From contig NC_057752.1 in the NCBI RefSeq assembly GCF_004010195.1, positions 888,123 to 952,122 of the forward strand: a stretch of 64,000 nt of DNA, read 5' to 3'. A program made the translations under genes and the position numbers. Numbering within the stretch: the first letter of the stretch is position 1; each line of letters begins with the position of its first letter. Under the pieces are notes generated by a model. It saw nothing but the letters and a program-made list of their open reading frames with translations. It was not told the origin of the DNA and searched no databases. Origin of the DNA: Chiloscyllium plagiosum (Eukaryota). This document shows, in pieces, positions 6,767-62,094 of the stretch.

Positions 6767-6954
6767 CTGGATTAGAGTGGTGCTGGAAAAGCACAGCAGT
6801 TCAAGCAGCATCCGAGGAGCAGGAACATCGACGTTTCGGGCAAAAGCCCTTCATCAGGAATAGAGCTTGAAGGGCTTTTGCCCGAAACGTCGATGTTCCT
6901 GCTCCTCGGATGCTGCCTGAACTGCTGTGCTTTTCCAGCACTACTCTAATCCAG
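6767..6954. mobile_element. Short palindromic Penelope-derived element
   Basis: About 85-bp near-perfect inverted arms; minus-strand core CTGATGA-A-GGGC-TTTT-GCCC-GAAACGTC at 6857-6830. Confidence 0.85.
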
Positions 6955-7814
6955 TTTGCAAAGATACGGGGAGAAGATTTGTTTTTTTGAGGAAGGCAGA
7001 GATGATGGCTGATTTAAAGGAGAGCAACAGCAGCTGAAGAGGGAACCAGGAAGCAAAGTTGTGAGGTCAGCATGTTAATAGCAACAGGGTCAAGAAGAGG
7101 GAACATCATGGACACGGACTCTGAGAAAACGAGGTGAGAGAAACCAGAAAAAACAAGTTCAGCGCTACGGCAGAGTGGCACTTTGGGGATGGGACTTTGG
7201 CCCACCAGGTTAGGGTAAAAGCAGGGCAGTGGCAATTTTGTTTTGAAAATGTTCCTGTGAAGAGGTTTGGGCTATATAGCCATGTTGAGATGCAATTTAA
7301 TACAGAAGTTCCAAGTTGTTTTTCTTCTATATGGGGATAGCAACAAAGATTGATCTGTCTTTCCCAGTGCCACACTCAGTCTCCATCCCAGTAGTAATTT
7401 GGATAATAATCAGGAATAGGAAACTTGGCCACTCTTTTAAACTCTGGATTGTTGATGTCAGTTATTTAATATGGCTTAGATTAGCACAAACTGTGCATAT
7501 GGCTTGGGTGTTTCCTGCTCTATCATGCTCCAGAGCATTGGGGCAAGTGAGCCACCTGGGACAGCTTTTCGCAAGTTAAATGCCATTGTAGACCTTTTTT
7601 TAAACAGAAGACTCCTTATAGATTTGACTCCATTGATCTTGTAAATCTATATTAATCATGTCACAGCTACATTTTGTCTGTCAGTTTTTGGTGATGTCAC
7701 ACTGAATAATTAATGGCAAATCTTACATATTCTCCCTATGTTATGTAGTGTCTACATCCCAGAGAAAAAAATTGTTTTGTCTACCACATCTGCCTCTGAC
7801 TCTTGTCCATTTTG

Positions 7815-8133
7815 GGCGGCACGGTGGCACAGTGGTTAGCACTGCTGCCTCGCAGCGCCAGAGACCCGGGTTCAATTCCCGACTCAGGCGACTGACTGTG
7901 TGGAGTTTGCACGTTCTCCCCGTGTCTGCGTGGGTTTCCTCCGGGTGCTCCGGTTTCCTCCCACAGTCCAAAGATGTGCAGGTTAGGTGAATTGGCCATA
8001 CTAAAAATTGTCCGTAGTGTTAGGTAAGGGGTAAATGTAGGGGTATGGGTGGGTTTCGCTTCGGCGGGTCGGTGTGGACTTGTTGGGCCGAAGGGCCTGT
8101 TTCCACACTGTAATCTAATCTAATCTAATCTAA
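7815..8133 (+). mobile_element. HE1-type (V-SINE) tRNA-derived SINE, full length
   Basis: tRNA-like head with A box tggcacagtgg and B box ggttcaattcc, V-SINE core gtggagtttgcacgttctccccgtg, CR1-like tail ggccgaagggcctgtttcc and (aatct)n. Confidence 0.9.
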
Positions 8134-8800
8134 CAGCATATCTTTCCATTTCTTTTGTCCTTGTGTTAATCCAGCTTTCCCTTAAATACATTGACCATTC
8201 ATCTTGACCACTCCCTATGGTATCGAGTTCCACATTCTTACCATCTGGAGAGAGAACTTTCTCCTGATTCTCCTGTTGGATTGATCATTGACTATTGTGT
8301 AGTTCTGGCCTTGCCCATGTTGAAATGCCTTCTTTATATCTCCCCTTTCAATGCATGTGCACTATGTGGTTTGAATTACTCTGATAAACTAAGGTGAGGG
8401 ATATGATTCAAGCCCAACCATCTTCAGTTTCTTCATCAATGACCTTGCCTCCGTCATAAGGTCAGAAGTGGAGATGCTCACTGATTGGTGCTAAACATTG
8501 TACATTCGTGCCTTCTTGGGTACTGACGTTGCCAATCAGAACTGAAGTTTTGGAGCACTGATAGATTTGAAGATGAGATGGCCAATCAACAACAAGAAAA
8601 TGGTATGAGTGTAAACAGAGATCGTAGTGCACTGCTGTTCCTGCAGATAGTTGAGAAAGACAGGAGGGTGACTCCATGAGGGCCCTACATCATCACTGGA
8701 AGACCAAATGGGGAGTGAAAGTCAATCTTGTGTTAGAATTTTAAATTATGAAATTAAGTTCGGAATAGATTAGCCTTGAACAGGACAGTATCAATTATGT

Positions 8801-9010
8801 CGAAAGTGTGGTGCTGGAAAAGCACAGCAGTCAGGCAGCACCCGAGGAGCAGCAGAATCGACGTTTCGGACATAAGCCCTTCATCAAGATTGATGAAGGG
8901 CTTATGCCCAAAATGTTGATTCTCCTGCTCCTCGGATGCTGCCTGACCTGCTGTGCTTTTCCAGCACTACACTCTCGACTGTGATTTCCAGCAATCCTCA
9001 CTTTCTCCGA
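8801..9010. mobile_element. Short palindromic Penelope-derived element
   Basis: Inverted arms; flanks atc(a/g)attatgt duplicated. Confidence 0.8.
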
Positions 9011-10044
9011 GGATCGATTATGTTCCTGTCCAAAAAATACCGGATGAACTGAGGATGCTGGAATTCAGAAACAAAAACAGAAATTGCTGGAAAAACTCAT
9101 CAGTGGAGAGAAATCAGAGTTAACATTTCGAGTCCAGTGGCTCTTTTTCCGACCCTTCTCCAGTTCTGAAGAAGGGTCACTGGACCTGAAACGTTAACTC
9201 TGATTGTGTTCCTGTGTCGCACAAGCATTTTAGAGCAGGCTTTGTTGTGATTATGAGTCACAAAATGCAGTGACCAACATGGCTTCTCAATGTAACTGGA
9301 ACGAATTTCTGTACGGAGTTATTGTATTCATTGTTTAGAACTAGCAGATCTGAAGTTTAAAACTCTGGGATACTGAATCTCAGGAATGGAGCAGGTACAA
9401 ATTTAGTATTTAGATTTGGGGGCAGTTCAATTGTTGCCCTTTCAAAAAAACAAGCTCAAGAGATCCTTCATCACAGGTGTGGGAAACCTGCCAAAAGTCA
9501 AGAGCAGTAGTCGTCAGAATTGAATATTGAAGATGAAATATTGATATTACTGCACTGTTAAATGTAGGGAAAACAGAAAACGTTGGAAATGCTCGAGCAG
9601 CATCTGTGGACTGATAAACGGAGTTAAAACGTGGAACTAAGTTCTAAAATGGTCCCTCCCAACTGGTTGGAGAGCCGTTAGAAGTCCCATGTCACTTCTT
9701 GAGGCCCAATGTTATTTAATCGCAGTCTGACACTGCAGTAATGCGATGGAAATCTTGGGCAAGCAGCTTTTCACTGCTGGCAACATCACCAAAAGCAGTG
9801 GCGGAGTGGTACTCAGTGAATGGCTTACAAACAACTGGCACATGCACAGTGGGCCCAACTGTTTCATTTTCTGCTGTGTCAATCTATGATACAAGCAGAC
9901 AATGTGATTATGAAAAAGAGGTCACTGCTAGGTGAAATAAAGTGGATGGTCATGCTTAGGAACTGCAGACCTGTTTCTCTTAGGCCAGAATTTGTTATCC
10001 CCATCCCTAACTAAAGACACATTGGAAAGCCACACATTAAAATG

Positions 10045-10200
10045 ACAGACCTACCGGGCTGTCTGACCCAGGCACTAGGGACCCACCAGGCAATCTGACC
10101 CAGGCACTAGGGATCCACCAGGCATTAGGGACCCCATCTGGCAGTTGGACCCAGGCACCAGGGACCCGCCGGGCAGTCAGACCTGGGCTCTCGGGACCCG
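10045..10200. repeat. GC-rich minisatellite, about 32-bp unit (gacccaggcactagggacccaccaggcaatct)
   Basis: 4-5 degenerate tandem copies. Confidence 0.8.
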
Positions 10201-59952: not shown

Positions 59953-60059
59953 CTTCCAACAGACAGTAGGTTAATAGCTATGGCTGATCCAATCACTTCC
60001 TGCATGTCTGAGCCAATGATTGCCAGCTCGATCATCAACCACAAAACAATTCGAGGGAA
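59953..60059 (-). CDS. SLC11A2: DMT1 exon: [35 protein letters not shown](R)
   Basis: 107 nt, ttgcag/gtaaag boundaries, NRAMP TM3 [18 protein letters not shown]. Confidence 0.96.
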
Positions 60060-60129
60060 CTGCAATGTGAACAATACAGACACTATTACAAAGATAACAG
60101 ATATAACATACAAAAAAAAATCCTATAGC

Positions 60130-61250
60130 ACTTTCGAGATGTAATCAAAATAAGATCAACCCTGAACCAAAGGAGAAAACATCATGACCACCAAAAGCTT
60201 AGTCAAGAGGTAGTTCTTCAGGAGGCTCTTTGAGGAGAAAAGAGCAGCAGAGGGGTTCAGGGAGGGAATTCCTGAGATTACAGACTTCACCTGTGGCTGA
60301 ACCATTCAAATCAGGGATCTAAAACAGGTCAGAATCAGAGCAGCACTGATAATTCAAAGGGTTATGGTGCTGAAAGAGATTAGAAAACTGGAGACAACAA
60401 GGTCAGAGTAATTTTAAAATGAAGTCACAACAAAGACTGGGAGATGGATGAACAGCACATAGTTTGAGCTCAGATATGGGCAAGTAAGTTTTGAATGAGT
60501 TGAAATTTATGGACAGCGGATGATGCAAGGTCTGCCAGGAGAACACTGGAATAAGTGCGTCTGAAGGTAATAAAGGCATAAGTAAGGGTTTTCACACAGC
60601 TTAGCTGAACATGGGCAGAGATGGATGATATTATAAAGATGGAAGTGAGTGGTCTTTGCGAGTGAAAGAGAATACAAGTCAGAAGCTCATTACAAGCTCA
60701 GTGTTGCTGAGATTGTGAACAAGCTGGTTCCACCTCAGACACTGGGCCAGGAGTACGCTATAAACCAGGGCAAGGATACACAGCCTTTGGCAGGGGCCAA
60801 AGCTGACGGTTTCAATCTTCCCACTGTTTAGCTGGAAACAACTGCAGCTCATCTCATAATGGATGAGTCCAGCAGCTTGACAACAGATTCAGTGTTGCGG
60901 TATGGGGGAAGATGATTCTTGAGGTAATGGCAAGGTTGATCTGGGTCACTGTCAGAACAAATGTGGAACCTGACCTCATGTTTGTGATGGAAAGTGGAGA
61001 AAGCTTAGATCCACAGACAATTCTGAGAGCAACAGGGTGGAAACAAGAACAGAATCCATTGTCAAATCAATCTTCTGGCCACGAATGGACAAGCCTGACT
61101 GGAGCCAAAGGCAATCCCAATGAGCTGGACAACAGAGGAGGATGGTATTGGTAACGGAGTCTTACAAAGGGGTAAAGGAGAGACAAGGCATCACATCCAA
61201 AATGGATGTCATTGGTGACTTCAATACAGGCCATCTTGATGCTGTAGCAG
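60130..61250 (-). mobile_element. Decayed L2-like LINE fragment
   Basis: Purine-rich degenerate sequence typical of L2 3' regions; no intact ORF. Confidence 0.4.
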
Positions 61251-61548
61251 GAGTCCGTACGTCTGTGACAGAAGGCACACAAACATACAAATTAAGAGCA
61301 GGAGTAGGCCACTCAGCCCTCAAGCCTGTTATATCATTCAATAAAATCATGTTCAATTTCATTACTCAATATTCCCATCTACCTCCAATAATATTTCATC
61401 TGCTTATCTACCTCTAGTCATGGTGAAGGGATGCATAGGTGGTTTCATCTATCGATAAAGCAAAGGTTTATTGGATAAGTGGCTCTTGCCTTCATGTTCT
61501 CATGTACATAATGCATTGTAAGTAGATCTACCGAAACTTAATACATAC

Positions 61549-61668
61549 CTTCGGATACTGCCTGTGGCAGACCTCAGCAAGATGCATCCCAGTTACCACT
61601 CCTAGGCGTGCAGCCAGTCGCTGGAGCAACAACCCTATAATGGTAGCTGTCAGCAGGATCCAAAGCAG
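61549..61668 (-). CDS. SLC11A2: DMT1 exon: [40 protein letters not shown]
   Basis: 120 nt, cag/gtatg boundaries, phase 0-0, close to mammalian DMT1. Confidence 0.96.
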
Positions 61669-62094
61669 CTGCAGAAAGACAAACCAAGTTGCACACAGTT
61701 CATAATCCCGGTCTCACAGTTTGGAAAATTTTAAGGTTATGTCACACAAACACATTCCTGGGTTCCAGTACTAAGTTTGCATCCTAAATATCACCGGCAC
61801 ACTCTGCAAGCAAAGCACATGGCTTTCTTTCAAGGCTAAAAACCAACAGCACGGAGGTCAGAAGAGGCAATTTGGCACTTCCTCTGGTCTTCAATACAGA
61901 ATCAACTGAAAGTGAGGTTCCAGATGAAGGACCTTTGCACGAAACGTCAATTCTCCTGCTCCTCGGATGCTGCTTGACCGGCTGAGCTTTTCCAGCACCA
62001 CACTCTCGACTTTAATACAGAGTGCTAATCAGACCATTTTTGCATAGAGTTTCAAATAAGCATAGTATTTTTTCCAAAAAAATCTTGGATGTAC

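Follow-up and report, generated by a model that had tools for sequence, protein, structure and literature searches.

A 64,000-nt window of the genome of the shark Chiloscyllium plagiosum (contig NC_057752.1, positions 888,123 to 952,122), vertebrate DNA of 41.6% G+C with two N gaps, contains 20 repeat elements associated with hammerhead ribozyme motifs. These elements are very probably ordinary insertion units of endonuclease-bearing Penelope-like elements (PLEs), standing at the short end of the size range of such units. They are members of a kind already described and are not a separate ribozyme element that copies itself. We also consider it reasonably probable that this PLE identity holds together with an origin of the inverted arms by priming on both target strands. 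The original prediction for this DNA had listed 15 places, and related repeats were found at all of them; the origin from Penelope-like termini, the minimal type I hammerhead, the long and variable target site duplications (TSDs) and the insertion by PLE reverse transcriptase (RT) and GIY-YIG endonuclease that it proposed were all supported. Its reading of the palindromes as non-autonomous, retrozyme-like or MITE-like RNAs (MITEs being miniature transposable elements with inverted repeats) was not, and the palindromic architecture that it took to be under-described is in print (PMC8557442, PMC3846280, PMC4209133).

When the window was compared with itself, the listed places fell into three components, and alignments divided these into five sequence families (A, 10 elements; B, 5; C, 3; D, 1, a distant relative of A; and E, 1). 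At least 14 of the 20 elements have inverted arms set head to head. The 20 elements range from 92 bp up to GIY-YIG-bearing copies of 600-890 bp that are built alike; they occur about once per 3 kb, and most are reduced to the last 90-130 nt. Some of the 15 places did not fit the description of core-bearing elements of 100-250 bp: the one near 26000 spans 25995-26357 across a 192-N gap in which its core is hidden, the one near 62750 is 343 bp long with essentially no core and a captured 193-bp piece, and the core at 54340 is too decayed to call. The most telling copy, 50504-51392, had been omitted; each of its arms contains GIY-YIG sequence, and its TSD is 14/14.

The ends of the elements can be observed directly. 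Elements are named below by their first coordinate, and positions within arms are counted from the predicted cut site, which lies at 38147/38148 in the 37609 copy. On their outer side, family A arms end at one or the other of two fixed positions, +62 or +98, which are 36 nt apart, and five elements have one end of each sort (21860, 8799, 16066, 37609 and 61908). The inverted arm carries the 36-nt extension and the sense arm ends at +62 in 21860, 16066, 37609 and 61908, and the arrangement is reversed in 8799. The same asymmetry between a short end and a tail is seen in 13345, 49941, 42569 and 50504. Four inverted arms (51947, 16066, 42569 and 62741) end near the cut site, and in two family B elements (9031-9202 and 51579-51737) the outer end of one arm lies only 3-10 nt past the predicted cut site, unlike the +62 and +98 ends.

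The centres of the palindromes are unlike in all seven two-arm family A elements, and family A sense arms begin anywhere from -24 to -503, a variable 5' truncation. Bunching of the inner ends within about 12 nt of the hammerhead 5' edge was nevertheless seen in 10 of the 13 family A arms that reach the core. In two elements the arms overlap barely or not at all (37609, +97..+60 versus -503..+62; 61908, +96..+87 versus -31..+62), and in 21860 each arm has sequence that is absent from the other; neither arm is therefore a simple fold-back copy of its partner. The inverted arm of 37609 consists of the tail alone and ends where the sense arm begins, the pattern expected from two primers on one RNA.

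TSDs were scored against random position pairs, with the 63924 element excluded; the null reached a maximum score of 7 (narrow slop), against 8-16 for the elements. Clear TSDs of 8-16 bp flank 9 of the 19 elements, including the perfect duplication of 21860 that had been pointed out before, and three more are borderline. The claim of long TSDs thus stood for these nine elements. Short TSDs of fixed length, which would be a sign of a DNA transposon, were not seen: the clear TSDs vary in length.

The termini are linked to PLE open reading frames (ORFs). GIY-YIG sequence is present in 5 of the 20 elements, in one of them weakly. It is carried by the 25995 element (E 5e-11), and tblastn places it at 37646-37877 (E 1e-32), at 46313-46443 (E 7e-7) and, weakly, at 32646-32885 (E 0.008), so that of the three fusions to GIY-YIG remnants predicted earlier, those at 37613 and 45947 stand and that at 32540 is only weak. 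The family A terminus is continuous with GIY-YIG coding sequence in 37609, 45947 and 25995. The only named relatives of the family A body, with 63-79% identity, are P0001 and P0002 of Chiloscyllium punctatum, which have both RT and GIY-YIG and carry the RT motifs upstream; Pfam matches of the family A body itself were below cut-off. In family E the ORF matches GIY-YIG at E 0.025 and by tblastn at E 4e-5, and it may be Poseidon-like, from the likeness of its VYKIPC..YIGQTGR motif. The family B body is weak (E 0.008), and for families C and D the window contains no body. Family A may be Neptune-like and shows no ORF start inside the hammerhead. The homologue P0001 has the CxxxxCxxC that serves as the Neptune criterion (PMC8557442), and the remnants in the window start downstream of that stretch. 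A further decayed GIY-YIG remnant at 4767-5177 (minus strand) is related to P0001/P0002 (tblastn E 2e-8), and 4571-4663 is similar to 53351-53440.

Because the same terminus runs into GIY-YIG sequence, and because 50504 has the palindromic layout at larger size, the short palindromes are the small end of one continuum, which is directly visible in the window. Most of the differences between the ORF parts of the two 50504 arms fall at third codon positions (14/35, versus 6/33 and 4/34 at the other two, or 10/67), and two subfamily RNAs therefore fed one insertion, which has one TSD. The sense arm of 50504 also resembles a chimera: at about 51215, inside a hammerhead core, the GIY-YIG body of one subfamily stops and the other subfamily's terminus takes over. 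This looks like the pattern expected from a template jump between RNAs.

A strict scan for minimal type I hammerheads found three motifs without any mismatch; the number rises to 12 if one mismatch is allowed and to 14 if two are, and 12 resampled windows gave chance averages of 0, 0.17 and 1.17. The motifs with at most one mismatch all fall inside elements. Two matches with two mismatches, at 1196 and 56183, were taken as chance, their number being in line with the chance rate. Across 15 cores, 88.6% of the helix I and II cells are paired and 7/7 pairs show two-sided changes, a score reached by none of 500 shuffles, with slid controls at 13-51%; these cores were hand-picked, and the changes fall between about five families and are not 15 independent events. 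One helix I pair fails in 8 of the 15 cores. Given the excess in the scan and the covariation of helices I and II, which had been proposed as a check, the hammerhead motif is real and was once under selection in the parent elements.

The features of minimal PLE hammerheads are present: the conserved core, an extra base between 9 and 10.1, and a palindromic 15.2-16.2. The extra base had been described as an A before helix II; the base itself is there, but in family E it is a T. Helix III is a bare palindrome (ACGT in families A, B, D and E; AGCT in C), and helix I in family A is short, with 2 bp, a mismatch and one further pair. A scan against Rfam matched no hammerhead family, as we would expect since the motifs have no helix III, and its seven sub-threshold hairpin matches to microRNA or small RNA models were taken as chance. 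A metagenome scan with a 24-nt arm motif gave 0 matches. The motif of the copies decays, often at CpG, and in public sequencing runs C>T and G>A are the prevailing differences. A CTGATGA..GAAA match at 62132-62169 was rejected as a core and reads as minus-strand host coding sequence, presumably an Nramp motif.

No palindrome retains two intact cores, and a transcript of either strand has one sense hammerhead and its complement, so the earlier statement that each strand carries a core was overstated. The right arm of 6767 lacks CTGA, and the inverted arms of 16066, 51947, 61908, 42569 and 62741 stop at or before the cut site. The 21860 element is predicted to fold as a single hairpin (-189.5 kcal/mol). 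Predicted helix II probability was 0.000 in all four palindromes with an intact helix II, compared to 0.69-0.998 in the same arms in isolation; 51947, whose helix II is mutated, was left out of this count. The folding energy of isolated arms was unremarkable (z -1.4 to +0.1, 8/8). The 51947 element is exceptional in that its arms make a long helix I around one core, which is mutated. PLE hammerhead dimers require two copies of the same sense (PMC4209133; reviewed in PMC6765202), and cores on opposite strands are therefore unable to form such a dimer in cis. As modelled, the fold-back of the palindromes buries the core; the hammerhead belongs to the life cycle of the parent element and decays in palindromic copies.

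The arrangement of ends could be produced as follows. The GIY-YIG domain would nick both target strands 8-16 bp apart, and the RT would prime from both 3' ends, at either of two internal RNA start sites (+62 or +98). Both complementary DNAs (cDNAs) would usually end near the hammerhead 5' edge, most likely because the template RNA begins there, and would then be joined end to end, often via an overlap of a few bases. With two-strand priming and joining of this kind, the palindrome would be made anew at each landing. This model fits the behaviour of the Anolis PLE protein in vitro, which cleaves and extends both strands and starts reverse transcription at two internal sites bracketing the tail, without a need for hammerhead cleavage (PMC11167929). 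The stop near -32 is best read as the 5' end of the RNA, since transcription of Drosophila Penelope begins within the pseudo-long terminal repeat (pseudo-LTR) a short way upstream of the hammerhead, at a point 46 nt ahead of an intron that ends at the 5' edge of helix I (PMC2377424; PMC4209133). Alternatively, the stop may reflect a barrier to the RT at the C-rich tract, joining with the target through AT overlap, or a separate short master RNA. In family B (9150-9166 and 33150-33165), a pyrimidine tract and CAG stand directly at the 5' edge of helix I and resemble a splice acceptor.

Four public runs were compared with 37580-38250 at 80% likeness, one supplying 3,510 raw RNA reads and three DNA runs, one of them from a second species, supplying 88,000-103,000 contig records each. 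The best-supported joint in all four runs was that of +58 to the tail, as expected from the layout of the reference copy (37609). In the three DNA runs, inverted arms consisting of the tail alone joined sense arms at varied points (38116, 38117, 38119, 38122, 38123, 38135, 38165, 37814 and 37860), each backed by 1-3 contigs. No fixed hairpin centre was found among the best 15 of 305 joints of the four runs. Loose ends piled up at +54 to +58 and at 38116 (-32), and in contigs 38116 was followed by AT-rich sequence of low agreement. Depth rose steeply at the hammerhead 5' edge, the arm exceeding the body 5-19x in the contigs of run X1 and about 20x in the raw RNA reads; this step falls within about 50 nt, contig depth is no copy number, and the rise is partly an artefact because other subfamilies drop under the 80% cut-off upstream (the body of 45947 matches that of 37609 at 346/450). 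The bunching of inner ends in the window is free of this bias. One contig in one run joined +58 to +1 with five letters between (depth 466), which is a hint only, other such joins being at +10 and +18. A sequencing-run search listed no RNA run as a holder of the sequence, a result without bearing on expression.

Several observations weigh against the two-strand priming of PLE units. The inner ends are not random, the 10 bunched family A arms all ending between -24 and -40; inner ends of this sort would also be expected from a separate short template RNA. Loose ends at 38116 were among the six loose-end rows listed for every run (208 reads; 410, 366 and 457 contigs), and the joint counts were saturated in two runs and cover the best 15 of the 305 joints. 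The single-cell poly(A) RNA reads, from a library unsuited to 5' ends, showed no piled-up starts or ends of molecules. No full-length parent with an intact ORF is found in the window, and no TSD was found for 7 of the 19 elements tested. Finally, both arms of 6767 and of 51947 share one outer end point, and these symmetric ends fit a fold-back equally well.

Self-priming within the same PLE origin, in which the cDNA or an antisense template folds back (PMC3846280) and the endonuclease trims the ends to give the tail asymmetry (PMC8557442), is the unlikely but most serious competitor. It would account for the symmetric elements and for the arms being mostly of one subfamily per element (identity of 98% in 6767, 94% in 21860, 90% in 8799 and 91% in 51947). 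It requires extra steps, however, for the non-overlapping arms of 37609 and 61908, the arms of 21860 that do not contain each other, and the two subfamilies of 50504.

We think it rather improbable that one arm by itself (-32 to +62/+98, 94-130 nt) is a non-autonomous RNA, resembling a short interspersed nuclear element or a retrozyme monomer, that is produced by short masters and moved in trans, with palindromes assembled from two such RNAs at landing. A short single-arm RNA may be mobilized in trans, and in a rotifer the pseudo-LTR sequence alone was enough for this (PMC3846280); the preferred 5' end at -32, after which the three DNA runs show unrelated AT-rich sequence, and the step in depth between arm and body would also suit it. 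The depth step, however, is subject to the inflation and the limit on contig depth described above, and the 5' ends are scattered over -24 to -40 and further. Short and long copies are not set apart by diagnostic changes, the arms of 21860 being 94% alike to the long copy 37609, and the like behaviour of five unrelated families points to a shared enzyme over five separate masters.

The proposal that the palindrome itself is mobile, as a retrozyme-like or MITE-like RNA that bears a ribozyme on both strands and is copied in full by the PLE protein, is very improbable. Palindromes with long TSDs do exist, and tandem non-LTR retrozymes, which occur in one chondrichthyan genome, have been interpreted as non-autonomous derivatives of PLEs (bioRxiv 10.64898/2026.07.22.740005), but those retrozymes are head-to-tail tandems, of which there are none among the 20 elements. 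No common centre exists in the window or among the 15 best joints of the runs, the same layout occurs on ORF-bearing copies, and the predicted hairpin removes helix II from palindromes of which none has two intact cores. A family of DNA-transposon MITEs with the arms as terminal inverted repeats, suggested by the short, abundant, inverted-repeat structure, is refuted by the variable 8-16 bp TSDs and the fusion of the termini to GIY-YIG and RT ORFs, and neither the 36-nt tail asymmetry, the many one-arm copies nor the lack of a uniform length or centre fits it, leaving it a negligible probability.

The units agree with published PLE insertions. These are heavily truncated on the 5' side, commonly accompanied by an inverted copy that is likewise 5'-truncated and by a tail of 30-40 bp at one end (Craig et al. 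2021, PMC8557442); they also have TSDs of 8-10 bp, arms set head to head, joins at microhomology and unrelated DNA between termini (Arkhipova et al. 2013, PMC3846280). Head-to-head arms, a 36-nt tail on one arm, long TSDs, microhomology joins, deletions and captured DNA (62741) are all found here. The shark units differ in being mostly reduced to the terminus, in their density, and in the bunching of inner ends at the hammerhead 5' edge, of which we found no description in the excerpts of these two papers. Their cores resemble metazoan PLE hammerheads, which have an extra base, a palindromic helix III and little activity, even when dimeric (Cervera and de la Pena 2014, PMC4209133): they are of type I with no real helix III, have G10.1-C11.1, and belong to many families per genome. 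They differ in the short helix I of family A and in that opposite-strand pairs are only 20-60 bp apart, compared to 100-700 bp in Schistosoma mansoni (PMC4209133); the excerpts of that paper do not name sharks. As in Anolis Poseidon (Frangieh et al. 2024, PMC11167929), two internal RT starts downstream of the hammerhead would bracket the tail and both strands would be cleaved and extended, although that paper, in its excerpted parts, does not derive an inverted arm from two-strand priming. Family A differs from Poseidon in its Neptune-like look and in having no ORF start within the hammerhead. Animal non-LTR retrozymes likewise have a type I hammerhead, are non-coding and are related to PLE termini, but they form head-to-tail tandems with a hammerhead per unit, whereas the shark elements are solo or head to head (bioRxiv 10.64898/2026.07.22.740005). 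Our literature search found no account of shark PLE hammerheads or of PLE twin priming; Repbase, Dfam, supplements and subscription papers lay outside it and may hold shark entries.

The formation of PLE inverted repeats and the in vivo role of the hammerhead have been called open (PMC8557442, PMC3846280, PMC11167929). We tentatively suggest that the stumps are a genome-wide in vivo record of RNAs that begin at the hammerhead 5' edge, of twin priming at +62/+98 and of run-off cDNAs joined head to head, and that the four inverted arms ending at the cut site come from RNAs cleaved beforehand by the ribozyme. Helix I complementarity gives an overlap at the cut site, which could equally guide joining or later deletion. 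If the suggestion is true, these arms would be the first in vivo footprint of hammerhead activity, and junction counts in shark genomes would settle both the origin of the inverted pseudo-LTR and in vivo cutting by the hammerhead. As elements the units are of small importance; their worth lies in very many short copies with TSD-defined ends for junction counting. Repeat annotation should class such hairpins as PLE ends; MITE, microRNA precursor and retrozyme would be the wrong labels.

Table 1. Elements of the window, with arm positions relative to the predicted cut site
Position	Family and layout	Arms, core and body	Inner ends	TSD
6767..6954	A, two-arm	Intact core 6830-6857 (minus); plus arm from about -24, without CTGA; arms 98% identical	about -32 to -40/-24	not found
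8799..9008	A, two-arm	Left -30..+62; right -27..+98 with tail	-30/-27	approximate, 8787-8800/9010-9023 (12/14)
9031..9202	B, two-arm	Intact core 9166-9195 (+)		9016-9029/9202-9215 (13/14)
13345..13578	D, two-arm	Tail on right arm		core 8/8, 13337-13344/13581-13588
16066..16212	A	Inverted tail and internally deleted remnant that stops close to cut site; sense arm -32..+63 follows	about 0/-32	not found
21860..22087	A, two-arm	Left +98..-32 with tail; right -38..+62; intact core 21998-22025 (+)	-32/-38	see next row
21844..21859 (+)	TSD of the 21860 element, left copy			right copy 22086-22101 (16/16)
25995..26357 (-)	A, single arm, truncated	GIY-YIG N-terminal piece 26247-26357; N gap 26053-26244; inside LINE (long interspersed nuclear element) RT fragment		15/16
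32538..33234 (+)	B, single arm, truncated	Decayed GIY-YIG-like body; core at 33165		10/11
35436..35527 (-)	A, solo arm, 92 bp	-32..+62		borderline, 6 bp
37609..38207 (+)	A	Inverted tail only, 37609-37645 (+97..+60), then sense copy -503..+62 containing the C-terminal half of GIY-YIG (frameshifted), a C-rich 3' region and the core 38120-38147	+60/-503	13/14
42569..42770	C, two-arm	Left arm ends at about cut site; right with decayed core (42652-42680) and tail		not found
45947..46470 (-)	A, single arm, truncated	GIY-YIG remnant, core 46041-46068, tail		not found
49941..50160	B, two-arm	Tail on right arm; cores decayed		not found
50504..51392	E	Inverted arm about 320 bp, sense arm about 575 bp, both with GIY-YIG coding; cores 50547-50580 (minus) and 51279-51312 (plus); arms joined via 7-nt overlap; tail on one arm		14/14, 50490-50503/51393-51406
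51579..51737	B, two-arm	Left arm ends a few bases past cut site		borderline, 12/15
51947..52145	A	Left +97..0; right from about -30, internal deletion, tail end; single decayed core	0/-30	not found
54345..54450 (+)	B, solo arm	Heavily decayed
61908..62010 (+)	A	10-nt inverted tail tip, then sense arm -31..+62	+87/-31	borderline, 12/15
62741..63083	C	Two coreless arms, 343 bp, around 193-bp piece		10/11
63924..64000 (-)	C, arm with tail	Cut by window end

The 8799 element of family A and the 9031 element of family B adjoin each other, and their TSDs overlap (8787-9215); these are therefore two insertions at almost one site. Between the arms of 62741, 62837-63029 is an inverted copy of 63453-63645 (179/193 identical), from about 420 bp downstream, and this 193-bp insert is local sequence captured in a PLE insertion.

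Most of the elements are probably intronic within an SLC11-type gene, with LINE fragments around them, since two minus-strand frames of the window match Pfam Nramp above cut-off. Exons of this Nramp/SLC11-type metal transporter are placed on the minus strand at 40115-40537, 42182-42493 and about 62100-62200, and elements sit between them. Fragments of LINE RT, which we take to be CR1-like, lie at 24847-26620, 33830-35100 and 38208-39168, with Pfam RVT_1 at 25252-25884, and the PLE copies 25995 and 37609 are inserted into such fragments. A 9-bp tandem repeat at 42194-42500 adjoins an Nramp exon and reads EGGEGG on one strand, and further tandem arrays occupy 10057-10199, 15853-16503, 36656-36784, 41820-42010 and 59390-59521.

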